A stretch of DNA of 64,000 nt from Variovorax sp. GTDB lineage: Bacteria > Pseudomonadota > Gammaproteobacteria > Burkholderiales > Burkholderiaceae_C. Shown piece after piece: positions 12,687 through 50,538 of the stretch. Numbering within the stretch: the first letter of the stretch is position 1; the number at the start of each line of letters is the position of its first letter. The notes below the pieces were generated by a model. The model saw only the letters and a list, made by a program, of their open reading frames with translations. It had not been told where the DNA came from and made no database searches. The position numbers were made by a program, and so were the translations under genes. The stretch is taken from contig CBDCKT010000003.1 in the NCBI GenBank assembly GCA_965218415.1, forward strand, positions 1,896,904 to 1,960,903. Direction: 5' to 3'.

Positions 12687-12727
12687 ATGTCCGATCCCGA
12701 ATTTCAAATCCCAAAGACAAATCTATT

Positions 12728-12770
12728 GCCCGCCAAGCCCGCGCATCACCGTGCGCGGGGGAGGGCGGCG
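12728..12770 (+). promoter_or_regulatory. GC-rich hairpin just upstream of the ilvH RBS, candidate cis-regulatory RNA
   Basis: cccgcgca-tcaccg-tgcgcggg stem with outer ccgcc/ggcgg pairing; AGAGG RBS follows. Confidence 0.45.
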
Positions 12771-12790
12771 AAAAGAGGCGTCGCATCACC

Positions 12791-23456: not shown

Positions 23457-23532
23457 TCCTCGATAGCTCAGTTGGTAGAGCGCCGGACTGTTAATCCGTA
23501 GGTCCCTGGTTCGAGCCCAGGTCGAGGAGCCA
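23457..23532 (+). tRNA. tRNA-Asn (GTT)
   Basis: TCCTCGA acceptor arm pairs with TCGAGGA; D arm AGCTCAGTTGGTAGAGC; anticodon loop ct-GTT-aa; T arm GGTTCGAGCC; encoded CCA; 76 nt. Confidence 0.98.
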
Positions 23533-23571: not shown

Positions 23572-23649
23572 CGTTTCACCTTTTGACTTTGAACTTCCCG
23601 GTTGCATGGCCCGCAAAAGGGCAAGTACAGCGAAGACCACAAAGAGCAA

Positions 23650-24160
23650 ATGATGGGTGTTGCAATTCGCAAACTGTCGCTGTCGGAATTCATGGCCTGG
23701 AAAGCGAACCAGGCAGGCCGCAACGAGTTCCATCGCGGCGAGGTGTTTGCCAATGTCGGCGGTCGTCGTGGCCACAGCCGCATCGTTGCCAACCTCACGC
23801 GGCATTTGGGCAACCACCTCGATGGATTGCCTTGCCAGGTTTTCAGAGGAGGCATGAAGGTGCGGATCGGCGATGACACTGTTGTCTACCCGGATGTTTT
23901 CGTGGGCTGTGACGAGCAGTTCAGGTTCGACGAGCAGGTGATCACCGAGCCCGTCCTCGTCATCCAAGTTCTCTCGCCCGGGACGCAGGCCTACGACAGG
24001 AGTGCGAAATTCGCTTCCTATCGGCGGCTGCCATCGCTGCGGGTACGCCCTGATCGACCCCGATACGCGCCGCGTCGAAGTGTTCAGGCCGGGCGACGAT
24101 GCGCTTTGAAAACTGTTCGACATGAGCGACAGTGAAGCGCTCGAATTCGCCAGCGTCGGT
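23650..24160 (+). pseudogene. Uma2 (DUF820, PD-(D/E)xK-like) endonuclease pseudogene
   Basis: YPDVFVGC, EPVLVIQVLSPGT and YRRLPSLR in one frame; YALIDPDTRRVEVFR resumes in another frame from 24044; in-frame TGA at 24107-24109 where Trp is expected, then KLFDMSDSEALEFASVG. Confidence 0.85.
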
Positions 24161-25384: not shown

Positions 25385-26161
25385 CTAGCTTCGATAACTC
25401 GCATCACGCCGATCCAGTTGCCGCACCAGGGCGTCGTACACGTCCTGCCCGGCGCCATAGCGCGGATTGAATTGAAGTGAATCGGTCGTCGTCCTCTCGG
25501 CGACCCCGAGCGGAATCGGAAGCGCCTTGCCGAGCGCTGCCTGCGCAACCTGAATCTCGCAAGCGCGCTGGAGCGTCCAGAGCCGCACGAACGCCAGGGG
25601 CAGGGTGACGCCCCACGCCAGCAAGCCGTGGTTGCGCAGGATCAGCAGCGGCTTGCCACCCATGTTCGCGAGCAGCCGCGGCGTTTCGCCGGCATGGATC
25701 GTGATGCCTTCGAACGGGTGATAGGCGACCAGATCGTGCAATTGCGCGGAATAAAAGTTGTTCTGCGCCAACCCCTCGGCCGTGCTGGCGACCGCGAGGC
25801 CTGCCGTGGTATGCGTGTGCATCACGCAATGTGCTTCCTCGACATGATCGTGAATCGCGGCATGCACCGTGAAGCCGGCGGGGTTGACCGGCCAGGGATT
25901 CGACGCATCGAGCTTGCGGCCTTCCAGATCGATCCTGACCAGATTGCTCGCCGTGACTTCGCTGTAATGCAGCCCGAAGGGATTGATGAGGAACTGCTTT
26001 TGCTTGCCCGAAACGCTTTCGGGCAAACGCACTGTGATGTGGTTGTAGATCATCTCGGCCCAACCGAGCCGATCGAAGATGCGGTAGCACGCGGCCAATT
26101 GCACGCGTGCGGTCCACTCCTCGGGATGAAAACTCCGTTCGCCGGAAGCCAGGTTCGTCAT
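25385..26161 (-). CDS. Class II aldolase/adducin family protein
   Basis: YNHITVR, INPFGLHYSEVTASNL, HAAIH, MHTHT and RNHG motifs. Confidence 0.92.
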   Translation of the reverse strand: MTNLASGERSFHPEEWTARVQLAACYRIFDRLGWAEMIYNHITVRLPESVSGKQKQFLINPFGLHYSEVTASNLVRIDLEGRKLDASNPWPVNPAGFTVHAAIHDHVEEAHCVMHTHTTAGLAVASTAEGLAQNNFYSAQLHDLVAYHPFEGITIHAGETPRLLANMGGKPLLILRNHGLLAWGVTLPLAFVRLWTLQRACEIQVAQAALGKALPIPLGVAERTTTDSLQFNPRYGAGQDVYDALVRQLDRRDASYRS

Positions 26162-26312
26162 GAAGCATCTCCAGTTCACGTGCGGTGTCGAACTGCGCGC
26201 CGGTAACAGTTCGTGCCGACGCGCGCGCTAGCGGAACACGTTTTACAACCGAAACGATCGTTGTGGGTGGATGCGCGTTGCGCAGTCCGCAGGGAATGAC
26301 GGGTTCCACACA

Positions 26313-26376
26313 GTTTCAAATAAAAAGTGTTTGAAACCTTTACTGGACGTGCGCAAGCAGCTATCCCTTTAATAGC
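26313..26376 (+). repeat. 64-bp dispersed repeat, copy 7 (left flank of the MAA cluster)
   Basis: GTTTCAAATAAAAAGTGTTTGAAACCTTTACTGGACGTGCGCAAGCAGCTATCCCTTTAATAGC. Confidence 0.9.
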
Positions 26377-26603
26377 ATTACCCGTGTTGCGATCGATGGC
26401 TTTCGGCTCGACGACGGTCCGTGCGAAAGCTGCGCCCATGTGCCGGACGGCTCGCGATGCCGGTCTTGCGCCCCGATGCAAACGCGCCACTGCAAGCCGA
26501 TAGCAGCATCGACTTCCGCGAATTGCGGCATGCGCCTACCTGCGCCGAGCAAGTGACTCCCGATAGTCCGGGATGGTTTTAAACATGGAACGCCACACCG
26601 CCA

Positions 26604-27482
26604 ATGAGCATGCTGTCACGTAAGTTGCTGACGACAGATGAATCGGGTGCCGCCAACGCGTCACCGCGCCCTGTCGATCCGCTCGGCATCATTGCCGAGC
26701 GGTTGAACCAGATCGCGCAGCACGCCAGCGGCATGGCAGAGCTCGATTCCGGTTTCGTCGAGGCGATTCGACATGTTTCGCGGCTTGCAAACGGGTTGGC
26801 GCCCTACATGGCGGACTGCACGACACCCGAATCCGCTGCGTTGTCGGCGCTCGTCGCGCGCACGCAGTCGACGGATTGGGCAGCCCATTTTTCGCAGGGC
26901 GAGACCACCGTCGCGCTGGAGCAGGAGATGCTCTCGGGCCATGTCGAAGGCCAGTTCCTCAAGTTTCTGGTCGGCGCGATGCGGGCGAAGCGCATTCTCG
27001 AAATCGGGCTCTTCACGGGGTACTCGGCGCTCGCAATGGCCGAAGCCTTGCCAGGGGAAGGCCGCCTGGTCGCCTGCGAGATCGATCCCTTCGCCGCCGA
27101 ATTGGCGCAAAAGGCATTCGATGCGTCGCCGCACGGGCAAAAGATCGAAGTGCATGTCGGCGATGCCGCTCGAACCCTGCAGCGCTTGAACGAAGAAGGA
27201 GCGAGCTTCGACCTGATCTTCATCGACGCCGACAAAGCCGCCTACGGGGCCTACTTCGACATAGTGCTCGGCGGCTCACTGCTCAGCGCACATGGTGCGA
27301 TTTGCGTCGATAACACCTTGATGCAGGGCAGCCCCTGGATGCCCGAGCCGATGACGCCAAACGGATCGGCGATCGCCGAGTTCAATCGCATGGTCAGGGA
27401 CGATGAGAGGGTCGAGCAGGTGTTGATACCGCTTCGGGACGGCTTGACCTTGATTCGCCGCCGCGAATCCGGGGCGCTGTAA
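26604..27482 (+). CDS. mysB: O-methyltransferase of MAA biosynthesis (MysB-like)
   Basis: PVDPLGI N-terminal segment, EQEMLSGHVEGQFL, LEIGLFTGYS, FIDADK, DNTL, PLRDG; cluster context. Confidence 0.9.
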   Translation: MSMLSRKLLTTDESGAANASPRPVDPLGIIAERLNQIAQHASGMAELDSGFVEAIRHVSRLANGLAPYMADCTTPESAALSALVARTQSTDWAAHFSQGETTVALEQEMLSGHVEGQFLKFLVGAMRAKRILEIGLFTGYSALAMAEALPGEGRLVACEIDPFAAELAQKAFDASPHGQKIEVHVGDAARTLQRLNEEGASFDLIFIDADKAAYGAYFDIVLGGSLLSAHGAICVDNTLMQGSPWMPEPMTPNGSAIAEFNRMVRDDERVEQVLIPLRDGLTLIRRRESGAL

Positions 27483-27487
27483 TCCGC

Positions 27488-28894
27488 ATGGCAAGCGATC
27501 TAACCAGAACCGCTGGCGCTATCGGCAATGTCGGCAGCGTCCGCAAGACCGGCGGCGCTCGAATAGTCGCAAAAGATATTGCGACTTTGGCCTTGCTGAC
27601 AGTCGCATTGCCGCTCAATTTGGGGCTCGTCGCGGGAGCTCTGGTCTGGCGCACGTTCCGAAAAGCATTGGGGCGTGACCGCCCGCGCGTGCCCGCGCGC
27701 GAGCCGAAATCGATTCTCATCAGCGGCGGAAAAATGACGAAGGCGCTGCAACTCGCGCGCTCGTTCCACGACGCCGGTCACAGGGTCGTCCTTGTGGAGA
27801 GCCATGACTACTGGCTCATCGGCCACCGTTTTTCGCGCGCGGTCGATCGCTTCTATACGCTGCCCAAATCCGGATCAGCGACCTATGCGCGCGCCTTGCT
27901 CGAGATCGTTCGCCGGGAGCGAATCGATGTGTACGTGCCCGTGTGCAGCCCGGTCGCGAGTCTGCACGATGCGCAGGCCATTGCCGTGCTGGCGCCTTAT
28001 TGCGAAATCATTCATGTCGACTCGACGAAGATCTCGCTGCTCGACGACAAGTACGAGTTTTCGCAAGCGTCCGGAGGAATGCAGCTCTCTGTTCCCCGAA
28101 CTTTCCGGGTCACGTGCGCCGACGACGTATTGCGATTCGATTTTTCCGGCGAGGCGCGGCGCTACATTTTGAAGAGCATCGCCTACGACTCGGTGCGGCG
28201 TCTCGACCTGACGCAGCTTCCAGCCGCGACGCCAGCGCAAACGGCGGATTTTGTGCGCTCGCTTCCGATCTCGGCATCGAACCCCTGGATCCTCCAGGAG
28301 TTCATTCCCGGCAAGGAATTTTGCACGCACGGCACCTTCAAACATGGCGAACTGCGGGTGCATGCCTGTTGTGAATCCTCTGCGTTCCAGATCAATTACA
28401 AGAACGTCGACAAGCCGGCGATCGAGGCGTGGGTCCAGCGGTTCGGTGCAGAACTCGCGCTGACGGGCCAGGCCTCCTTCGATTTCATCGAGGCCGACGA
28501 CGATGGCCGGATCTACGCGATCGAATGCAATCCGAGAACACATTCGGCCATCACGATGTTCTACGACCATCCGGACCTGGCGGACGCTTATCTGGGCGAG
28601 CAGCCGCTGCCGGCCCCGATTCGTCCGCTGGCTTCGAGCCGCCCGACCTATTGGATCTATCACGAGATCTGGCGACTCCTCACGCGCGTGGGGTCGATGG
28701 CCGCCACGCGCGAGCGCCTGCGCATCATCCGCGGAGGCAAGGATGCGGTGTTCGACTGGCGCGACCCGTTGCCGTTTTTGATGCTGCACCACTGGCAGAT
28801 TCCGCTGCTGCTGCTCAGAGATGTGCGCGAGCGGCGCGGCTGGGTCAAGATCGATTTCAATATCGGCAAGCTCGTGCAGTTGGGAGGCGACTGA
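27488..28894 (+). CDS. mysC: ATP-grasp mycosporine-glycine ligase (MysC-like)
   Basis: TLALLTVALPLN, ISGGKMTKALQLARSFH, GHRFSRAVDRFY, ILKSIAYDSVRRLDL, LQEFIPGKEFCTH, IECNPRTHSA, PTYWIYHE and DFNIGKLV, the recognisable MysC signatures. Confidence 0.93.
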   Translation: MASDLTRTAGAIGNVGSVRKTGGARIVAKDIATLALLTVALPLNLGLVAGALVWRTFRKALGRDRPRVPAREPKSILISGGKMTKALQLARSFHDAGHRVVLVESHDYWLIGHRFSRAVDRFYTLPKSGSATYARALLEIVRRERIDVYVPVCSPVASLHDAQAIAVLAPYCEIIHVDSTKISLLDDKYEFSQASGGMQLSVPRTFRVTCADDVLRFDFSGEARRYILKSIAYDSVRRLDLTQLPAATPAQTADFVRSLPISASNPWILQEFIPGKEFCTHGTFKHGELRVHACCESSAFQINYKNVDKPAIEAWVQRFGAELALTGQASFDFIEADDDGRIYAIECNPRTHSAITMFYDHPDLADAYLGEQPLPAPIRPLASSRPTYWIYHEIWRLLTRVGSMAATRERLRIIRGGKDAVFDWRDPLPFLMLHHWQIPLLLLRDVRERRGWVKIDFNIGKLVQLGGD

Positions 28895-28897
28895 GCC

Positions 28898-29941
28898 GTG
28901 CCGCTGCGTCGAATCCTGCACTTGGTCGGCTCGCCGACGAACGATTTCTTTTGCGAGCTTTCCGATGTTTACGCGAGAGCGTGCATCGACGCGCTTCGCG
29001 ATCCGGCGCGCTATGCGTTCGTCATTGCACTTGTCACGCCTGACGGCCTCTGGCGCTTCCCCGAATCGCTCGAACGCGATGCGATCGACGCTTGCGAGCC
29101 TATGACCGTCGGCCCGGCCATCGCCCGCATCATCGGCGAGCGCATCGATCTGGCGCTTCCGCAAATGTTCTGCATGGCGGGAATGACGGCTTACCGCGCG
29201 CTGCTCGACATGCTGAAAATTCCATATCTCGGAAACCCGCCGGCGCAAATGGCGATCGCGGCTGACAAAGCGAAGGCACGGGCGATCGTCGCGAGCGCCG
29301 GCGTGCGCATTCCGCGCGGCGAGTTGCTTCGCGCAGGCGACGCGGTCACGCTGCCACCGCCCCTCGTCATCAAGCCCAATGATTCCGACAACTCCGACGG
29401 GGTTTCGCTCGCGCGCTCCACGCAAGAGGCAGCGGGGTCGTTGCGTGAAGCTTTTTCTTTTTCGGACCGCGTGCTGGTCGAGCAATACATCGAACTCGGG
29501 CGCGAGGTGCGCTGCGGCGTCGTGGTCGAAGGCGGCGAACTGCAATGCCTACCACTCGAAGAGTATTTCGTCGATACCGAAAAAAGGCCGATTCGCACCC
29601 GCGCGAACAAGCTCAGCCGCGATGCGGACAACGGCATGACACTCGCTGCCAAAGAAAGCACGCAGTCCTGGATCGTCGCCACCGACGATCCCATATTTCC
29701 CGCCGTGCGGGATGCTGCGCTGCGGTGCCACGACGCGCTCGGATGCCGGCAGTACAGCCTTTTCGATTTCAGGATCGATCCCGAAGGCAAGCCCTGGTTC
29801 CTGGAAGCGGGGCTTTATTGCTCGTTCTCACCCCAAAGCGTGCTTGCCACGATGATGAGCGCGGCCGGTACGCCGCTCAGTTTGTTTTTCTCCCGGGCAG
29901 TCGAAGAATTGCTGAACGCCGATCCGACGCGGGGCCGCTGA
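28898..29941 (+). CDS. mysD: D-Ala-D-Ala-ligase-like MAA amino-acid ligase (MysD-like)
   Basis: LHLVGS..DFFCELS..YA, LALPQMFC..GMT.YRALLDML, YIELGREVRCG, CLPLEEY, YSLFDFRID and FLEAGLYCSF motifs; GTG start. Confidence 0.9.
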   Translation: MPLRRILHLVGSPTNDFFCELSDVYARACIDALRDPARYAFVIALVTPDGLWRFPESLERDAIDACEPMTVGPAIARIIGERIDLALPQMFCMAGMTAYRALLDMLKIPYLGNPPAQMAIAADKAKARAIVASAGVRIPRGELLRAGDAVTLPPPLVIKPNDSDNSDGVSLARSTQEAAGSLREAFSFSDRVLVEQYIELGREVRCGVVVEGGELQCLPLEEYFVDTEKRPIRTRANKLSRDADNGMTLAAKESTQSWIVATDDPIFPAVRDAALRCHDALGCRQYSLFDFRIDPEGKPWFLEAGLYCSFSPQSVLATMMSAAGTPLSLFFSRAVEELLNADPTRGR

Positions 29942-30048
29942 TCGCGCTTTGCGTTTTTTCGCTCGACCGCTCCGGTCTGGTTTTTTCTAGTTTCACTGGT
30001 TCGCGTCGCCGCAGGGCGGCAATTTTCCAATCAAAGGTCTTGTGTTTT

Positions 30049-31806
30049 ATGAGCAGCACGGTGCACGGTATTCAAAAGTTCCTCGACCGGTTCGACCATT
30101 CGGCATTGAACGGGGACGATCCGGGGCGCGATCTGATCGGGCTTGTCGCGTCTGAAGATTTCAGGCGCCTGTTGTCGACGCTGGTGGAGGCACCCGCGTT
30201 CTCGAATGCTCTGGGCGAAGAATTCGCTGCCGTCGGTGCGGTCGAAGGGATATCCGCGTGTCGCATGCTGCGCGGCTGCATGAATTTGTCGTTGCGCCGC
30301 TTCATCATGTTGCTGGCGCAGCTCCTGTCGTCGTTCGACAGCGCGCCGGAGAAGCCGGCGGTCGGCCCGGCCTGGAAGCGGTTCGCAGAGCGGATTCAGC
30401 AGGCGGAAGCGCTTCGGGACGAAAAACTCACCGACTACGCCGCTTCGCTTCAAAACGCATCCGACGCGGGGATTTTCTACGAATCGCTCGCGGTGCGGCT
30501 CGAGCAGACGAATCCGCATGCGATCTATCCAACCTCCAACTACCGCGAATCCGACGGCCATGCGGTCAGTACGGCAGACGACCAGACCATCGAAGCGGTG
30601 ATGTCGGTGAGTACCTTTTCGAGCATCAAGATCGTCGATCGGTCGCTCGACCTGGATCAGCCGGTTCTGAAAGATATCTATCAGTCGCTCGGTCGTTGCG
30701 TCTGCCTCGTGGACGAAAGCGTCGAAGCGATTTATGGCGCGCAGCTCGAGCGCTATTTCACGCATCACGACGTGGTGCTGCACAAGCGTGTCTACCGCGC
30801 CATGGAGGCGGACAAGGGAATCCGAACGGTCGAGAAAATGCTGGGCGATTTCAAGGCGCTCGGTGTGTCCCGAAACGAGCCGGTTTTGATCGTCGGTGGC
30901 GGGGTGCTGGCCGACACCGGCGGATTGGCTTGCGCGCTCTATGGCCGCAATACCCCCTATGTGATGCTCGCGACGTCGATAGTCACCGGCATCGATGCCG
31001 GACCGTCACCGCGCACCTGCTGCGATGGATTCGGCTACAAGAATCTGTTCGGCGCGTACCACCCGCCGGTGGTGTCGATCACCGACCGGTACTTTTTCAA
31101 GTCGCTGCACGAAGGCTGGTTGCGTCATGGCATTGCCGAAATCATCAAGATGAGCATCGTCAAGAATGCCGAGCTTTTTGCCGATCTCGAGAAAGCGCAA
31201 GCCGACCTCGTGCGAACGCGATTCGGCACAGTCGAATGCGCCGGCGACGATGCGATTCGGAGCCTTTCGCAGAAAATTCTGGGTGGCGCGCTCAAGTCAT
31301 ATGTGGCGGCGGAATATGACAACTTGTATGAAACCCATCAATGCCGTCCGCACGCGTATGGCCACACCTGGTCGCCAGGTTTCGAGATTGAGGCCGGTCT
31401 CTTGCACGGTCATGCCGTGTCGGTCTGTATGGGATTCGGTGCCTATCTGAGCTTCAGGCTGCAATGGATTGAAAAAAGTGACTTCGAGCGCATCCTTAAA
31501 TTGATCAGTGGTTATGGGTTGAGCCTCTGGCACGAAATTCTCGATCGCAAGGAAACGATCTGGAAAAGCCAGCAGGTCGTGATGCAAAAGCGCGGCCAAA
31601 ACCTCGTGGCACCGCTTCCCAAGAATGCGATCGGCCAATGCGGCTACCTCAACAAGCTGACTCAGGCCGATCTGTATTCGGCTCTGGACGAATACAAGGC
31701 GCTGTGCAAGAGCTACCCCCGAATGGGGCGTGGCATCGATCCGCTGTGCAGCGATGTCGGGCTCGAAGCGCCGTCCACGGTCGGCGCGGCGTTGGTCGAC
31801 GCATGA
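30049..31806 (+). CDS. mysA: Sedoheptulose-7-phosphate cyclase / demethyl-4-deoxygadusol synthase (MysA-like), long form, 585 aa
   Basis: DHQS-like fold: GGGVLADTGG, MLATSIVTGIDAGPSPRTCCDG, KNLFGAYHPP, HGIAEIIKM, CRPHAYGHTWSPGFE, LLHGHAV; start at ATG 30049. Confidence 0.88.
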   Translation: MSSTVHGIQKFLDRFDHSALNGDDPGRDLIGLVASEDFRRLLSTLVEAPAFSNALGEEFAAVGAVEGISACRMLRGCMNLSLRRFIMLLAQLLSSFDSAPEKPAVGPAWKRFAERIQQAEALRDEKLTDYAASLQNASDAGIFYESLAVRLEQTNPHAIYPTSNYRESDGHAVSTADDQTIEAVMSVSTFSSIKIVDRSLDLDQPVLKDIYQSLGRCVCLVDESVEAIYGAQLERYFTHHDVVLHKRVYRAMEADKGIRTVEKMLGDFKALGVSRNEPVLIVGGGVLADTGGLACALYGRNTPYVMLATSIVTGIDAGPSPRTCCDGFGYKNLFGAYHPPVVSITDRYFFKSLHEGWLRHGIAEIIKMSIVKNAELFADLEKAQADLVRTRFGTVECAGDDAIRSLSQKILGGALKSYVAAEYDNLYETHQCRPHAYGHTWSPGFEIEAGLLHGHAVSVCMGFGAYLSFRLQWIEKSDFERILKLISGYGLSLWHEILDRKETIWKSQQVVMQKRGQNLVAPLPKNAIGQCGYLNKLTQADLYSALDEYKALCKSYPRMGRGIDPLCSDVGLEAPSTVGAALVDA

Positions 31807-31849
31807 ATCACCCAGTCGCAGATCACTTCAACTTTCAGGAGAACCAGAT

Positions 31850-32545
31850 ATGCCCAAATCCGCTTTGATGTTCGGCTCGATCGGGAGCATCGTCGAAAGC
31901 TCCGACATCCAGCGACGCGCTTACAACCAGGCACTGAAAGAAGCCGGCCTCGACTGGGAATGGGATCGCGACACCTATGCCGAACTGCTCAACCAGTCCG
32001 GCGGCAAGGAAAGGTTGTCGATGCTCGCCTCGGCGACCCACGCGGCGTTGTCTGCCGAAAAAATCGAAAGAATTCATGCGCGCAAGACCGAGATTGCATG
32101 CGAAGAGCTTGTTTCAAAAGGCATCAAGCTCAGGCCAGGCGTTTCGGAATTGATCAAGTTTGCCAAAGGCCAAGGCACGAAGCTGGCTTTCGTCACCAGC
32201 ACGTATCAGCCGAATATCGACGCGATCTTCGAGGCGGCAGGGGCCGCGCTGGCGGCCAGCGACTTCGACTACATCGGTTCTCGCAGCGATGTGACGCAAG
32301 GCAAGCCGGCGCCCGACGCTTATCTGAACGCGCTCGCGAAGCTCGGCGTATCGGCAGCGGATGCGGTTGCGGTCGAAGACACGGCCAACAGCGTTATGTC
32401 GGCCAAGCGCGCCGGACTGTTCGTGATCGCGACGCCCGGCGAAGTCACCGCCAACCAGGATTTCTGGCAAGCCGATCTGCTTGCCGGCAGCTTGCTGGGC
32501 CCCGACGGCGCACTCGATCCGCGCGTTCGGGCATCGCTTCAATAA
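31850..32545 (+). CDS. HAD-IA/CbbY-like protein with non-canonical motif I
   Basis: MFGSIGSIVESS replaces DxDGT; GGKERL, LRPGV, FVTST, KPAPDAY and AVEDT motifs; AGGAG RBS. Confidence 0.8.
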   Translation: MPKSALMFGSIGSIVESSDIQRRAYNQALKEAGLDWEWDRDTYAELLNQSGGKERLSMLASATHAALSAEKIERIHARKTEIACEELVSKGIKLRPGVSELIKFAKGQGTKLAFVTSTYQPNIDAIFEAAGAALAASDFDYIGSRSDVTQGKPAPDAYLNALAKLGVSAADAVAVEDTANSVMSAKRAGLFVIATPGEVTANQDFWQADLLAGSLLGPDGALDPRVRASLQ

Positions 32546-32547
32546 GC

Positions 32548-33327
32548 ATGCAGCCGACGCCTCTTGCGCCGTTCGGAGCGCAAGTACACGGGTTGGACCT
32601 TCGTGCGGCTTCCAGCCGACAGATGGCCGAAATCGCATTTCTGATTGCGAGCGCCAGAGTGGTGGTTTTCCGCGGCCAGCAGGCCGACGATGCCCAGTTC
32701 GTTCGCTTCCTTCGCGGGCTCGGCAGGCTCACGTTCACGCGCGGTGAGACGCCGGTAGAAGGCGCGCCGGATCTGAACATCGTGACGAACCTGGGGCGGT
32801 CAACGCCGCCACGCAGCGTCTTTCACACCGATTCGAGCTACATGGCAAGCCCGCCCTCATTCACTGCGCTTCGCCCGGCGCAGTTGCCGAATGCGGGCGG
32901 GCAGACCCTGTTTTCAGACCAGGTTCGGGTGGCCAGCGAGTTGACACCCGCCGTCAGGCGATGGCTCGCGGGGCGACGCGTGCTGCATCGGTCGACCGGG
33001 ATCGACAGGGAAACCGAATCGCACTGGCATCCACTTTTCCGTCGTCATCCATTGACGGGCGAAACCGCGTTGTTTTTGTCGACGCCGCAGCGCTGCGTCG
33101 AACTCAGCGGCGCCGATCGAGCGACCGCGCAGCGCGTGATCGGCGCGTTGTACCGACGCAGCACCCGGCCTTCGAGGCTCTATCGCCATCGATGGCAAGC
33201 CGGCGACATACTTGTTTGGGACAACCGCGTGACGATGCACCGCGCCGATCATGCGGACGTCTCGGGCGCACGCGTGCTGCATCGTGGCATGGTGGCTGGA
33301 GAGGTTCCGCAAGCTGCCACAGAGTAG
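32548..33327 (+). CDS. TauD/TfdA family Fe(II)/2-oxoglutarate dioxygenase
   Basis: PFGAQVHGLDL, VVVFRGQ, FHTDSSY (HxD), GGQTLFSD, HPLFRRHPLTGE, WQAGDILVWDNR..MHR and RVLHR motifs. Confidence 0.92.
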   Translation: MQPTPLAPFGAQVHGLDLRAASSRQMAEIAFLIASARVVVFRGQQADDAQFVRFLRGLGRLTFTRGETPVEGAPDLNIVTNLGRSTPPRSVFHTDSSYMASPPSFTALRPAQLPNAGGQTLFSDQVRVASELTPAVRRWLAGRRVLHRSTGIDRETESHWHPLFRRHPLTGETALFLSTPQRCVELSGADRATAQRVIGALYRRSTRPSRLYRHRWQAGDILVWDNRVTMHRADHADVSGARVLHRGMVAGEVPQAATE

Positions 33328-33366: not shown

Positions 33367-33430
33367 ATTTTGAAAGAATAGTGCTTGAAACGCCCGTCAG
33401 TCTTGCGCAGACAGCTATAACTTTAATAGC
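33367..33430 (+). repeat. 64-bp dispersed repeat, copy 8 (right flank of the MAA cluster)
   Basis: ATTTTGAAAGAATAGTGCTTGAAACGCCCGTCAGTCTTGCGCAGACAGCTATAACTTTAATAGC. Confidence 0.9.
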
Positions 33431-36177: not shown

Positions 36178-36473
36178 GTTTTTCCTTGAGGCGCTGGTTG
36201 AGCTGAGTTGGTAGATATCGTTGTTCGAACAGCGCCACTGTTCAATCAGTGACCGCTTTTCGAAACGACCCGGTAATGGTCTCGCCAAAGCACTGGTCGA
36301 TAAAAACTAGAACAGCGCGATATTTAGGTCAACTGCCCCAATTCGGGCTGTTTTGCGCCGGCGAGCTGCTTATTCTTCCGGGGCTACCTGCGTTTGCGCG
36401 CGGCGCTTGGGGTTGCAACCCGGTGGCAAGCCTCGCGAGCCCACGTATGCTCGCACCTACGAGGAGAACGCCC

Positions 36474-39400
36474 ATGTCCGGTCATAACCCGCTTCATCCC
36501 ATTCCGCACCCGCCGCGCAAACCGATCGTCGGCAACCTGCTGTCGATCGGCTCGGATTCGCCCGTGCTCGACATGTGGAAGATCGCGCGCGATCTCGGCG
36601 GTATTTTCTGGCTCGACATGCCGGGCATGCCGGTGATCGTGGTTTCTTCGCCGGCGTTGGTCGACGAACTCTGCGACGAAAAGCGCTTCGACAAAAGCAC
36701 GCGCGGCGCATTGCGGCGGTTGCGCGCGGCATCGCATGGGCTTTTCACGTCGGACACCGACGAGCCGACCTGGTCGAAGCCGCACAACATCTTGCTGGCC
36801 AACTTCAGCCAGCGCGCGATGCAGGCCTATCACCCGATGATGCTCGACATCGCGAACCAGCTGGTTACCAAATGGGAGCGGCTCAATTTCGACGACCAGG
36901 TCGATGTCACGCGCGACATGACGGCACTCACGCTCGACACGATCGGATTGTGCGGTTTCGGCTACCGCTTCAATTCTTTTTATCGCGAGGGCTTTCATCC
37001 GTTCGTCGACGCGATGGTGCGCACGCTCGAGACGGTGCAGGACCGGCGCGGCCTGCCGCTCGAAGAGCTGATGATGAAAAAGCAGCTGACCCAGCAGCGC
37101 AAGGACATCCGCTACATGCACCGGATGGTCGAGGACATCATCAAGGAGCGTCGCGATAGCGGCGCCGACATCGCGACCCGGCCCGACTTGCTCAGCTACA
37201 TGATCGCTGGTGTCGACAAGAAGAGCGGCGAAAAGCTCGACGACAAGATGATCCGCGACGAGTGCATCGAGTTCCTGATCGCGGGGCACGAGACGACCAG
37301 CGGTTTGCTCTCGTTCGCAATGTACTACCTCGTCAAAAACCCTGAAATTCTCGCGAAGGCGCAGGCCGAAGTCGACACCGTGTTCGGCACCGATCTGGCC
37401 GTTGAGCCGACCTATGCGCAGGTCAATCGGCTGCAATACATCCAGCAAATTCTCAAGGAAGCGCTTCGGATGTACCCCACGGCGCCGGCCATCGCCAAGC
37501 GCGCGCTCGAGGACACGACGATCGGTGGGCAGTACACGATCAAGAAGCGCAACCTCGTGATCCTGCATGCGCTCGCATTGCACCGCGACAAGGCCGTCTG
37601 GGGCGAGGACGCCGACGAGTTCAACCCCGAGCATTTCAGCCGCGAGGCCGAACGCGCCTTGCCGCCGAATGCCTACAAGCCTTTCGGCACCGGGCAGCGC
37701 TCGTGCATCGGGCGCCAGTTTGCGTTGCAGGAGGCGACGCTCACGCTTGCGATGGTGCTGCAGCGTTTCGACTTGATCGACCACACCGACTACAAGCTGA
37801 AGGTGAAAGAAGCGCTCACGATCAAGCCGGAGCATTTTCATATTCAGGTGCGGCTACGCGAGGCGGTTGGCCGATCACCGGCTGCGCGTGCGCCCGCCGG
37901 CGCCGGTTCAGCGTCGGCGTCCGGTGATGCGCAGGCGCAGAGCGCGGTCGCATCGACCGCCGCGCCGCGCCACGGAACGCCGTTGCTGGTGCTGCACGGC
38001 TCGAACCTCGGCACCGCCGAAGACCTCGCGCGCCAGGTGGCGGAAGAGGGCACAGCACGCGGCTTCGCGGCCGAACTCGCGTCGCTCGACGACTTCGCGG
38101 GCACCTTGCCGGTGGCAGGCGCAGTCGTGATCGTGAGCGCCTCGTACAACGGCGTGGCGCCCGACAACGCAGGCGGCTTCGTGCGCTGGCTGAGCGACAC
38201 CGACGCCGCGTTGAAGGGCGTGAACTACAGCGTGTTCGGTTGCGGCAACAGCGATTGGGCCGCGACCTACCAGTCGGTGCCGCGAGCGATCGACGAGAAA
38301 TTGGCCGCGCTAGGCGCGCACCGGATGATGGAGCGCGGCGAGGGCGATGCGCGTGAAGACATGGACGGCGCATTCCAGAGCTGGTTCGGGGCGCTGTGGC
38401 CTGCCCTCGGCCAGACATTGAGCATCGCTGTCGATGCCGCAGGCGGGCGCAGCGAGCCATTGCTGCTAATCGAGGATGTCGCGCCCGCGGGCGTGCTTTC
38501 GCCTGCGGTCGCGCAAGGTTTCAGCCGGCTCATGGTGGCCGTGAACAGCGAATTACAGAGTTCGGCCGAACATGGCGAAGGCGCCGCTGCGACCGATGCA
38601 CGTTCGACCCGCCATGTCGAGTTCGCGCTGCCCGAAGGCATGCGCTATCGCGCGGGCGACCATCTGAGCGTGGCGCCGCGCAACAGCGACTGGATGGTCG
38701 AGCGCGTGATGGCCCGTTTCGGCCTTGCGCGCGACGCACACGTGCGGCTGCGAACCGCGGCCGGCCGCAAGACATTTCTTCCGACCGACCAACCCATCGC
38801 AGTTCGCCGCTTGCTCGGCGAATTCGTCGAACTGCAGGACGTCGCGAGCCGCAAGAGCATTGCGGCGCTGGCAGAACACACCCCATGCCCGGTCACGCGC
38901 GGCAGGCTCGAGGCACTGACCGGTACCAGCGACGAGGCATCGAAGCTCTACAAGTCCGAGGTGCTGCAAAAGCGCAAGTCGGTGTTCGACCTGCTCGACG
39001 AATTTCCGGCTGCCGCGCCGCCCTTCGGTGCAGTGCTGGAAACGCTCGCACCGCTCGCGCCGCGGTATTACTCGATCTCGTCGTCGCCGTTGGCCGATCC
39101 CGCGCGGCTCGCAATCACGGTCGGCGTGGTCGCCGGCAAGGCGCGCTGCGGCGTCGGCGAGTTCGAAGGCGTTTGCTCGAACCATGTGCAGCGGATGCAA
39201 AGCGGCGATGCGGTTCATGCGCTGGTGCGCGAGCCGACCGTCGCATTCCGGCTACCCGACGACCCAATGCGGCCGCTCATCATGGTCGGGCCGGGCACCG
39301 GACTCGCGCCGTTCCGCGCCTTTTTGCAGGAGCGCGAAGCATTGCAAAAAGCCGGCACCGCGCTCGGGCCTGCGATGCTGTTCTTCGGCTGCCGCCATCC

Positions 39401-39725
39401 CCGCGAGGACTTCATCTATGCCGACCAGTTGCAGGGCTGGGCCGATGCTGGGTTGGTGCAGCTCTTCACCGCGTTTTCGCGTGAAAGCAAGCGCAAGGTT
39501 TATGTGCAGGACCTGATGCGCGAGCAATCCGAAGCAGTCTGGAAGCTGATCGATGCCGACGCTGTGATCTACATTTGCGGCGACGGCTCCCGCATGGAAC
39601 CCGATGTGCGGCGCACGCTCGGCGAAATCGCGCGCACGGTCGGGCAGGTGGCCGATCCGGAGCAGTGGATCGAGAAAATGATCGCCCACGATCGCTATGT
39701 CACGGATGTGTGGACGGGAAATTGA
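36474..39725 (+). CDS. Self-sufficient cytochrome P450/NADPH-P450 reductase fusion (CYP102, BM3-like)
   Basis: AGHETT, EALR and FGTGQRSCIG heme motifs; flavodoxin GSNLGTAE and FGCGNSDW; FAD/NADPH motifs RYYSISS, GPGTGLAPF, FFGCR, YICGDG. Confidence 0.96.
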   Translation: MSGHNPLHPIPHPPRKPIVGNLLSIGSDSPVLDMWKIARDLGGIFWLDMPGMPVIVVSSPALVDELCDEKRFDKSTRGALRRLRAASHGLFTSDTDEPTWSKPHNILLANFSQRAMQAYHPMMLDIANQLVTKWERLNFDDQVDVTRDMTALTLDTIGLCGFGYRFNSFYREGFHPFVDAMVRTLETVQDRRGLPLEELMMKKQLTQQRKDIRYMHRMVEDIIKERRDSGADIATRPDLLSYMIAGVDKKSGEKLDDKMIRDECIEFLIAGHETTSGLLSFAMYYLVKNPEILAKAQAEVDTVFGTDLAVEPTYAQVNRLQYIQQILKEALRMYPTAPAIAKRALEDTTIGGQYTIKKRNLVILHALALHRDKAVWGEDADEFNPEHFSREAERALPPNAYKPFGTGQRSCIGRQFALQEATLTLAMVLQRFDLIDHTDYKLKVKEALTIKPEHFHIQVRLREAVGRSPAARAPAGAGSASASGDAQAQSAVASTAAPRHGTPLLVLHGSNLGTAEDLARQVAEEGTARGFAAELASLDDFAGTLPVAGAVVIVSASYNGVAPDNAGGFVRWLSDTDAALKGVNYSVFGCGNSDWAATYQSVPRAIDEKLAALGAHRMMERGEGDAREDMDGAFQSWFGALWPALGQTLSIAVDAAGGRSEPLLLIEDVAPAGVLSPAVAQGFSRLMVAVNSELQSSAEHGEGAAATDARSTRHVEFALPEGMRYRAGDHLSVAPRNSDWMVERVMARFGLARDAHVRLRTAAGRKTFLPTDQPIAVRRLLGEFVELQDVASRKSIAALAEHTPCPVTRGRLEALTGTSDEASKLYKSEVLQKRKSVFDLLDEFPAAAPPFGAVLETLAPLAPRYYSISSSPLADPARLAITVGVVAGKARCGVGEFEGVCSNHVQRMQSGDAVHALVREPTVAFRLPDDPMRPLIMVGPGTGLAPFRAFLQEREALQKAGTALGPAMLFFGCRHPREDFIYADQLQGWADAGLVQLFTAFSRESKRKVYVQDLMREQSEAVWKLIDADAVIYICGDGSRMEPDVRRTLGEIARTVGQVADPEQWIEKMIAHDRYVTDVWTGN

Positions 39726-44717: not shown

Positions 44718-44792
44718 GACGTTCTTTCGACGCAATGGCAGGTCGGCTTGCGATGCCCGAATGGCTGGCGAGATGGCAGCCGGGCTTTTTTG

Positions 44793-44890
44793 CATGCTTC
44801 CCTGCGCGAGGATTACCTCAATCAGGTTCAAAGGGACTTTCTCAGCCGTTGCGCAACCGGTTTGATTGCGCGTCGGCACCCCTAGCGATG
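44793..44890 (-). ncRNA. TPP riboswitch 1 (upstream of the TonB receptor)
   Basis: Reverse complement: ctaggggtgcc...GGCTGAGAaagtCCCTTTGAACCTGAttgaGGTAATcctcGCGcAGGGAAGC. Confidence 0.95.
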
Positions 44891-44922
44891 TCTGCCGACT
44901 GTGCTCGGCGGACCGTTGAATT

Positions 44923-50235: not shown

Positions 50236-50319
50236 TCGTTTGCTCCAAAGCAAAGTTCTGGCAGGTGGGCAACAATTCAGTGGCTGAAATTCAACGAGAG
50301 AGTCGTCGCGGCCATCGAA

Positions 50320-50416
50320 CCAGCTTCCCTGCGCGAGGATTACCTCAATCAGGTTCAAAGGGACTTTCTCAGTCGATTCCCACAGCCGAAGCCAGCGAAT
50401 GACACCCCTAGCGATT
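50320..50416 (-). ncRNA. TPP riboswitch 2 (upstream of cytX)
   Basis: Reverse complement: ctaggggtgtc...GACTGAGAaagtCCCTTTGAACCTGAttgaGGTAATcctcGCGcAGGGAAGC. Confidence 0.95.
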
Positions 50417-50538
50417 GGCTTCACACCGACACGGATCGGCGCAAAGCTTCACTATCTTACGCAAGCTATGAATGCTTTACACAAGTGCATCGTCGGGATG
50501 CCCGGTCAAGCGCATAGTTGGCTGCAACTGAGATCTGA

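Follow-up and report, generated by a model that had tools for sequence, protein, structure and literature searches.

MAAs (mycosporine-like amino acids) are sought-after natural sunscreens, and how they are made is known almost wholly from studies of cyanobacteria. Whether a heterotrophic betaproteobacterium may carry the same capacity is the question raised by a stretch of 64,000 nucleotides from Variovorax sp. (contig CBDCKT010000003.1, positions 1,896,904 to 1,960,903; hereafter the window), in which six biosynthetic genes lie in tandem. A sequence-only reading of this DNA had described four consecutive genes with MysB, MysC, MysD and MysA signatures followed by two accessory genes, separated by gaps of 2-107 bp, and this arrangement was recovered with open reading frames (ORFs) at exact coordinates. 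The six genes and two associated noncoding intervals are as follows (aa, amino acids):

26180-26603, plus strand: upstream intergenic region, presumed promoter region, 424 bp
26604-27482, plus strand: MysB-type S-adenosylmethionine-dependent O-methyltransferase (OMT), 292 aa, PF01596
27488-28894, plus strand: MysC-type ATP-grasp ligase, 468 aa, NF005315
28898-29941, plus strand: MysD-type D-Ala-D-Ala-ligase-like ATP-grasp enzyme, 347 aa, PF07478
29942-30048, plus strand: gap between mysD and the cyclase gene, 107 bp
30049-31806, plus strand: long-form sedoheptulose-7-phosphate cyclase resembling desmethyl-4-deoxygadusol synthase (DDGS), MysA equivalent, 585 aa, DHQ_synthase + DHQS_C
31850-32545, plus strand: CbbY-like haloacid dehalogenase (HAD)-fold protein, 231 aa, HAD_2
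32548-33327, plus strand: TauD/TfdA-family Fe(II)/2-oxoglutarate (2OG) oxygenase, 259 aa, PF02668

All six ORFs are full length relative to their homologues and free of internal stops, and the gaps between them are, in order, 5, 3, 107, 43 and 2 bp. The same six genes occur together in unrelated genomes, and therefore the grouping is not due to chance. Gene content, catalytic motifs, distribution and phylogeny could be observed directly, and from these the locus is probably an MAA cluster of the six-gene type that includes HAD and TauD genes, with MAAs as its likely product. Three of the encoded proteins are non-standard for MAA biosynthesis, namely the cyclase, the HAD-fold protein and the TauD-type oxygenase. 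The two genes that had been called accessory are indeed present; clusters of this type keep them as part of their core, so they are not incidental neighbours.

The interpretation in the sequence-only reading largely holds, and a complete MysB-MysC-MysD-MysA set with two further genes is supported. The first three genes match the MysB, MysC and MysD families; the cyclase is not a textbook MysA. The O-methyltransferase matches PF01596 over residues 105-286 (1.2e-53), and OMT genes that neighbour MysC in loci of cyanobacteria and other bacteria share 51-63% identity with it. A caffeoyl-CoA-OMT-like gene thus adjoins the others, as in mysABCD-type clusters. The MysC protein scores 467 bits against NF005315 (PRK06849), for which the curated cut-off is 406; it is the sole match above the cut-off in the genome, and none was found in 14 control genomes. 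It is 52-70% identical to the OMT-adjacent gene of MAA loci. A sequence search returned no solved relatives of MysC, and a profile search gave weak, non-significant ATP-grasp matches only. MysD matches PF07478 (Dala_Dala_lig_C) at 5.5e-15 and is 55-66% identical to the gene after MysC in other loci, where it is syntenic with MysC. Its scores to D-Ala-D-Ala ligase (Ddl) models lie far under their cut-offs (87 vs 243 bits), therefore it is not the housekeeping Ddl. Residues 1-70 of MysC (27488-27700) form an N-terminal extension outside the NF005315 model with a hydrophobic stretch, IATLALLTVALPLNLGLVAGALVW, which could be a membrane anchor.

Comparison with known systems shows where the cluster belongs. 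In the canonical mysABCD clusters of Nostoc punctiforme, Microcystis and Nostoc linckia, MysB, MysC and MysD are shared with Variovorax, whose cluster differs by the gene order B-C-D-A and by two extra conserved genes. In the Anabaena variabilis cluster a MysE resembling nonribosomal peptide synthetases replaces MysD, and its DDGS, Ava_3858, is the solved structure PDB 5TPR. The closest precedent is the cluster class found with GATOR-GC (Cediel-Becerra et al. 2025, PMC11888242 / NAR gkaf606), in which HAD and TauD/TfdA genes, previously unlinked to MAAs, were conserved in MAA clusters. These clusters came from Actinomycetota, Pseudomonadota (Alphaproteobacteria) and Bacillota, with examples in Pseudonocardia alni, Rhodococcus fascians, Mycobacterium spp., Caulobacter vibrioides, Bradyrhizobium and Priestia (PMC11888242). 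The Variovorax cluster encodes the same six domain types (DHQS-like, O-MT, ATP-grasp, D-Ala-D-Ala ligase, HAD and TauD/TfdA), and the predicted product class, shinorine plus palythines according to the Osborn & Mahmud abstract that the study cites, is also the same. It is therefore an already catalogued cluster class and not a new kind of system. The novelty is smaller than the sequence-only reading implied, as the HAD and TauD architecture had already been published as a bioinformatic class (PMC11888242) and also occurs in Polaromonas and Janthinobacterium metagenome-assembled genomes (MAGs).

New features are the host order, the nesting of the cyclase among cyanobacterial clusters, and the peculiarities of the cyclase, the HAD-fold protein and the oxygenase described below. 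Table S5 of the GATOR-GC study lists 131 windows, the proteobacterial ones from Alphaproteobacteria, with no entry from Burkholderiales (PMC11888242). The view that no characterised example exists in Burkholderiales agrees with the literature searched, which links neither Variovorax nor Burkholderiales to MAA synthesis. The cluster places Burkholderiales among the non-phototrophs with a probable capacity to produce UV or stress protectants of their own.

The same six genes were also found in permuted order in a 4.6-Mb genome (L001), in the Polaromonas (L002) and Janthinobacterium (L021) MAGs and in a Granulicella MAG (L014). Five cyanobacterial MAG loci, including Phormidesmis, carry the order OMT-MysC-MysD-HAD-TauD-cyclase (L004, L007, L008, L011 and L013; the L013 contig ends inside MysC, and the OMT is not seen there). 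The GATOR-GC study states that Cyanobacteriota lack HAD and TauD (PMC11888242), and these five loci contradict that absence. Across loci the modules OMT-MysC-MysD, cyclase and HAD-TauD move separately. The contig of L001 is 4,633,546 bp long, and for a contig of this same length the records list a pair of distinct long-form cyclases (P0034, P0043) and a pair of HAD-like proteins (P0148, P0155), which suggests two copies of the cluster in one genome.

The start codon of the cyclase is the ATG at 30049, and its DDGS-like catalytic part aligns to DDGS over residues 195-564. [quoted passage not shown] The comparison with the Anabaena DDGS (Ava_3858) that the sequence-only reading had pointed to therefore places the cyclase closest to DDGS, ahead of EEVS and DHQS. 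An idea that the locus is a leaf-symbiont kirkamide/EEVS cluster was rejected, as the host belongs to Comamonadaceae and the DDGS-like cyclase is accompanied by MysB, MysC and MysD partners.

Two fingerprint sites separate EEVS from DDGS (PMC4426668, eLife 2015, which confirms their number only). In a multiple alignment, Ala436 of the cyclase (RPHAYGHTWSP) aligns with RVIAYGHTWSP of DDGS and RLVDFGHSFSP of ValA, so that a DDGS-like Ala occupies the ValA Asp281 site, and the GHTWSP motif is of the DDGS type. We take the two sites to be Asp281 and His360 of ValA (Asp/Ala and His/Thr in EEVS/DDGS), identities that reportedly go back to Kean et al. 2014. At the second site Lys514 (QKRGQ) aligns with Thr in DDGS (LTRDG) and with His360 in ValA (KHRDG), matching neither; only one of the two sites therefore agrees with DDGS (Ala yes, Thr no). 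Glu364, His439 and His455, aligned to the metal-ligand motifs and presumably metal ligands as in the DHQS family, are invariant.

Several features weigh against DDG synthesis by this enzyme. The Lys514 that departs from DDGS is invariant in 16 long-form sequences. In a putative phosphate-pocket stretch, which reads PRTCCDGFGYKNLFG in the cyclase and IKVAVNHRKLKNRLG in DDGS, the cyclase carries Arg322, Asp326 and Leu333 where DDGS and EEVS both have Lys, Asn and Arg; this stretch is presumably the one that binds phosphate in DHQS. The protein is 585 aa long with an extra ~190 aa, compared with ~400-410 aa for single-domain DDGS, and a domain of ~160 aa at its N-terminus has no equivalent in the canonical enzyme. 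Moreover, the genomes of ESFC-1 and Spirulinaceae SM2_1_0 carry the cyclase with a DUF6492 gene, and MysC was found nowhere in either genome. From these two genomes it follows that the long-form cyclase family may also feed another pathway.

The wider family provides the counterweight. The long form gave 1562 database matches, and 289 relatives were found among GTDB species representatives. The best-matching 80 of these 289 were examined as loci; they are almost all cyanobacterial and 62-68% identical to the cyclase of the window. Across this large family, many of whose members NCBI names 'sedoheptulose 7-phosphate cyclase', identity to the window protein is 62-73%, and the expectation that automated annotation would mislabel the gene as aroB is thus only partly correct. 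In the cyanobacterial loci the cyclase stands beside OMT-MysC(-MysD) in some cases and alone in many, often followed by a DUF6492 gene. Where it is alone, the OMT-MysC(-MysD) module was found elsewhere in six of eight genomes, and none of the eight has a DDGS-like cyclase besides the long form, all further matches being of the DHQS type and 25-29% identical. A split layout has a functional precedent in Halothece PCC 7418, where mysA (PCC7418_1590) and a separate mysBCD (PCC7418_1078-1076) give mycosporine-2-glycine in Synechococcus (PMC12981126). This system (Aphanothece halophytica Ap3858-3855) shows that the cyclase gene is separable from OMT-MysC-MysD, as in the long-form cyanobacteria; unlike the Variovorax cluster, it has no HAD or TauD genes. 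Further, a protein of 899 aa from a representative library (P0294) is a natural fusion of the N-terminal domain, a DHQS-like cyclase and a PF01596 O-methyltransferase, and as a Rosetta stone it ties the long-form cyclase to MysB. With the long form as the only DDGS-like cyclase, the split layout and the OMT fusion, DDG synthesis is the best reading, inferred from sequence relationships. The only cyclase found in a collection of plasmids was a distant one of the short form, from Nostoc HK-01.

The same observations bear on an alternative in which the long-form cyclase is a fourth C7 cyclitol synthase rather than a DDG synthase, leading to a gadusol-like, 'gadusporine'-like or new conjugate. Lys514 and the altered putative phosphate-pocket residues, invariant in the long-form family, would fit such an enzyme, as would the orphan N-terminal domain and the finding that in some cyanobacteria the family accompanies DUF6492 while MysC is missing. 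This is nevertheless improbable given the higher score to DDGS than to EEVS, the DDGS-like Ala436 and GHTWSP, the fusion to a MysB-type OMT in P0294, and the six genomes with OMT-MysC(-MysD) that offer no candidate MysA apart from the long form.

The DUF6492 protein (~340-365 aa) was encoded directly 3' of the long-form cyclase in six of ten cyanobacterial loci without adjoining mys genes. These genes are located at:

L051, 9797-10813: DUF6492 gene
L017, 6410-7465: DUF6492 gene
L006, 9791-10816: DUF6492 gene
L009, 9808-10905: DUF6492 gene
L033, 9777-10871: DUF6492 gene
L063, 9770-10783: DUF6492 gene

The most unusual part of the cyclase is its N-terminal domain, which is kept across the long-form family (A1 and A2):

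30049-30543, plus strand: N-terminal all-alpha domain of the cyclase, approximately residues 1-160; a linker of low confidence extends from there to approximately residue 195

A first AlphaFold2 (AF2) model of the full-length cyclase was mediocre (predicted local distance difference test, pLDDT, 66.6) and served only to delimit the domains. The AF2 model of the N-terminal domain was confident and all-alpha (pLDDT 89.4, predicted template modelling score 0.86). No Pfam match to it was found even at E<=10, no sequence match was found in the PDB, and the best Foldseek hit against the PDB reached only E=1.8 with a template modelling score of 0.2. In 1.84 billion representative proteins only 48 sequences contain the domain. 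When ten of these matches were scanned against Pfam, all seven with any Pfam match had the domain N-terminal to a DHQS-like domain; the matches without one were mostly short fragments. Its role is probably regulatory or in docking.

The question of what the last two genes contribute begins with the HAD-fold protein. Its best match in the PDB is CbbY (4UAR), at 138 bits over 211 residues. CbbY is a xylulose-1,5-bisphosphate phosphatase (Rhodobacter sphaeroides 4UAR; Arabidopsis At3g48420, 4UAV), and the cap signature W-x-W...GGKER and motifs II (Ser/Thr), III (Lys) and IV (acidic pair) are shared with it (VTST, GKP and VEDT, compared with ATTT, KKP and LEDS in CbbY). In motif I, by contrast, FDVDGT of CbbY aligns with FGSIGS, and both the nucleophile and the acid/base Asp are replaced in the HAD protein family, by Gly and Ile. 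HAD proteins of eight cluster loci, spread over Proteobacteria, Acidobacteriota and Cyanobacteria, show the pattern G-[SA]-I-G, as do all 120 of the closest homologues in the database. Since both motif I aspartates are gone in every homologue examined, phosphatase chemistry is excluded and the protein is predicted to be a conserved, non-catalytic pseudo-phosphatase.

The oxygenase matches PF02668 (TauD) at 1e-46; this is the sole family matched, and PhyH is not. The H-x-D...H triad and the 2OG-binding Arg align with those of E. coli TauD (1GQW): HTD corresponds to WHTD, the distal His lies in TMHRA (TQHYA in TauD) and the Arg lies in VLHRG (IMHRA in TauD). The TauD residues concerned are presumably H99, D101, H255 and R266. 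HAD and TauD genes are adjacent, in that order, in every locus that has both (2 bp apart here), and in every locus examined the pair lies inside the biosynthetic cluster.

A comparable step is known from MAA clusters that encode MysH or MysI, oxygenases of the PhyH family which turn disubstituted MAAs into palythines (PMC10666671). MysH is described as being of the phytanoyl-CoA dioxygenase type (PMC11888242). The Variovorax enzyme belongs to the same Fe(II)/2OG oxygenase superfamily, lies likewise inside an MAA cluster and has the same proposed function, oxidative removal of the glycyl carboxymethyl group, but it differs in family (TauD, PF02668, in place of PhyH) and in being always paired with a pseudo-HAD. 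It may act like MysH, without being a member of that family. The MysH/MysI palythine-forming oxygenases were reportedly described by Chen et al. 2021 and Arsin et al. 2023. Oxidative N-dealkylation via alpha-hydroxylation is typical chemistry of the TauD family.

From homology and gene context we infer each chemical step and the final product. The long-form cyclase would convert sedoheptulose-7-phosphate to desmethyl-4-deoxygadusol (DDG), which the MysB O-methyltransferase would methylate to 4-deoxygadusol. MysC would then join 4-deoxygadusol and glycine to give mycosporine-glycine, and MysD would add a second amino acid, giving an MAA of the shinorine, porphyra-334 or mycosporine-2-glycine type. 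In analogy to MysH, the TauD-type oxygenase may oxidatively strip off the carboxymethyl group that stems from glycine, yielding palythine-type MAAs, with the HAD-fold protein most likely as its non-catalytic partner in binding, scaffolding or regulation. Confidence in the palythine step and in the HAD role is lower than in the making of MAAs. The product may act as a UV screen, an osmolyte or an antioxidant.

An operon with HAD and TauD genes from Rhodococcus fascians D188 gave shinorine, palythine and palythine-serine, according to what is relayed of an abstract (Osborn & Mahmud 2018, cited in PMC11888242). That the palythine role of a TauD-type enzyme traces to this second-hand conference abstract counts against the step. 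An alternative is that the four mys genes make an ordinary disubstituted MAA and the HAD/TauD pair does another job, such as hydroxylation of the ring or a side chain to an undescribed analogue, or salvage or degradation of MAAs. MysH and MysI belong to PhyH and not to TauD, MysH systems lack an equivalent of the invariant pseudo-HAD partner, and the only functional claim is the unpublished abstract as relayed; all three would accord with a different function. On balance this is unlikely, as that abstract attributes palythines to the HAD and TauD operon, N-dealkylation through alpha-hydroxylation suits the TauD family, and the pair was inside the biosynthetic cluster in every locus examined. 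A palythine-forming oxygenase with a pseudo-HAD partner thus stays the preferred assignment.

A more far-reaching proposal was also considered, in which the cluster represents a distinct variant of the MAA pathway that originated in cyanobacteria and passed from them to non-phototrophic bacteria, with a fourth C7 cyclase (marked by its N-terminal domain, Lys514 and altered putative phosphate pocket), a pseudo-phosphatase and a TauD oxygenase acting as a unit; this is a tentative idea. In it the pseudo-phosphatase, derived from CbbY, might conceivably be an obligatory non-catalytic subunit or a sensor of sugar phosphates. The unit might then, speculatively, yield palythine-type or undescribed MAAs through a partnership of enzyme and pseudo-enzyme that is not known from MysH systems. 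The points that merit experiment are the orphan N-terminal domain, the odd cyclase fingerprint, the invariant dead HAD and the substitution of TauD for MysH. With all six genes intact in a host of the Variovorax type that grows fast and can be cultured, the cluster would be a convenient native or donor system, and the same host would allow tests of the pseudo-HAD and TauD genes flagged by GATOR-GC and of the N-terminal domain of the long-form MysA.

How the cluster reached this host was addressed through its distribution and phylogeny. The host genome is 4.19 Mb in three replicons and 99.8% complete, and the cluster is on the largest replicon. The host belongs to Comamonadaceae, its IlvC sharing a 90% cluster with proteins of Variovorax and Rhodoferax, and the photosynthetic reaction centre family (Photo_RC) was not found in its genome, in agreement with its description as a heterotrophic betaproteobacterium. 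The cyclase was absent from all 300 family, 100 genus and 400 order genomes sampled (~800 Burkholderiales). A maximum-likelihood tree with its root on short-form DDGS unites the heterotroph cyclases in one clade (Shimodaira-Hasegawa-like approximate likelihood ratio test, SH-aLRT, 100). This clade lies inside a clade of exactly the cyanobacterial six-gene loci (99), nested among the cyanobacterial long-form cyclases. Its sister group is the cyanobacterial set L004, L007, L008, L011 and L013. The tree gives the direction of transfer, from cyanobacterial six-gene clusters to Acidobacteriota and Proteobacteria. The horizontal acquisition put forward in the sequence-only reading thus finds backing in both the absence from ~800 sampled Burkholderiales and the position of the cyclase among cyanobacterial clusters.

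Two observations speak against a foreign origin. The GC content at third codon positions (GC3) of the cluster (0.72-0.78) ranks from the 31st to the 49th percentile among the long ORFs of the genome and so gives no hint of foreign DNA, and no mobile-element, integrase or att signature was found that would mark an island. GC3 was dropped as evidence on transfer, being uninformative. Horizontal transfer is well supported by the comparative data, and since the composition is host-like and no integrase or att signature was found, it would not be recent.

Alternatively, the cluster might be an unused passenger in this bacterium, silent or in decay. It is unique among the ~800 sampled relatives and lies in a non-syntenic region beside an apparently frameshifted Uma2 gene, as might be expected of a passenger. 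Nevertheless this is very unlikely, as the six ORFs are intact, catalytic and invariant residues and the tight or overlapping spacing are kept, the codon composition is adapted to the host, and the branch length of the cyclase protein is not extreme. A functional cluster is thus favoured.

As for its transcription, the upstream region 26180-26603, between the class II aldolase gene and the OMT start, contains no ORF with a family match, and no sigma-70 consensus was found in it. A weak terminator-like hairpin at 29965-29977 lies inside the 107-bp gap, although hairpin counts around the cluster are not above shuffled expectation. The gap is a possible boundary between two transcription units. 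The hairpin fits the separate movement of the OMT-MysC-MysD, cyclase and HAD-TauD modules.

The cluster lies 10 kb from ilvHC-pssA-leuA, with a class II aldolase gene (25385-26179, minus strand) on one side and an alpha/beta-hydrolase/TetR pair on the other. In four genomes of the same genus only the class II aldolase gene was kept near its orthologue, and none of 14 other flank or cluster proteins was found there. Borders of an island by synteny were rejected, as no empty site could be reconstructed in these four genomes.

Repeats around the cluster were considered as borders of an att-type cassette at tRNA-Asn and rejected, as they are copies of a dispersed element with ~487 copies genome-wide, 12 of them in the window. 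This intergenic repeat of ~70 nt has the core GAAAC-N8-GNCNTNCGC-N3-CAGCTAT-N5-TNATAG. The ~487 copies, counted at <=3 mismatches, are spread over all three replicons, and a control with the reversed pattern gave 0. At about one copy per 8.6 kb, the two copies flanking the cluster are probably coincidental. The copies in the window are:

26333-26375 and 33387-33429, same orientation: the two copies flanking the cluster, the former in its upstream region
3748, 5549, 8464, 23296, 24364, 40426, 44630, 53651, 58194 and 61530: other copies

Upstream of the cluster, a tRNA-Asn(GTT) gene at 23457-23532 is followed by an ORF for a Uma2-family endonuclease (PF05685) at 23602-24135. This ORF matches only profile positions 2-121 of 172 and appears to be frameshifted near 24030, with the expected C-terminal YALIDPDTRRVEVF reading in another frame. 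Downstream, 3 kb 3' of the cluster, 36249-39725 encodes a 1158-aa fusion of P450, flavodoxin and FAD/NAD reductase domains, a self-sufficient enzyme resembling P450 BM3. Ahead of it come, on the opposite strand, genes for an alpha/beta hydrolase and a TetR regulator, and the fusion shows no sign of belonging to the MAA cluster. Three RNA elements were also located in the window:

12716-12783: ilvH leader RNA (RF02993), ahead of ilvH-ilvC-pssA-leuA
44782-44893, minus strand: thiamine pyrophosphate (TPP) riboswitch
50309-50419, minus strand: second TPP riboswitch, 5.5 kb from the first

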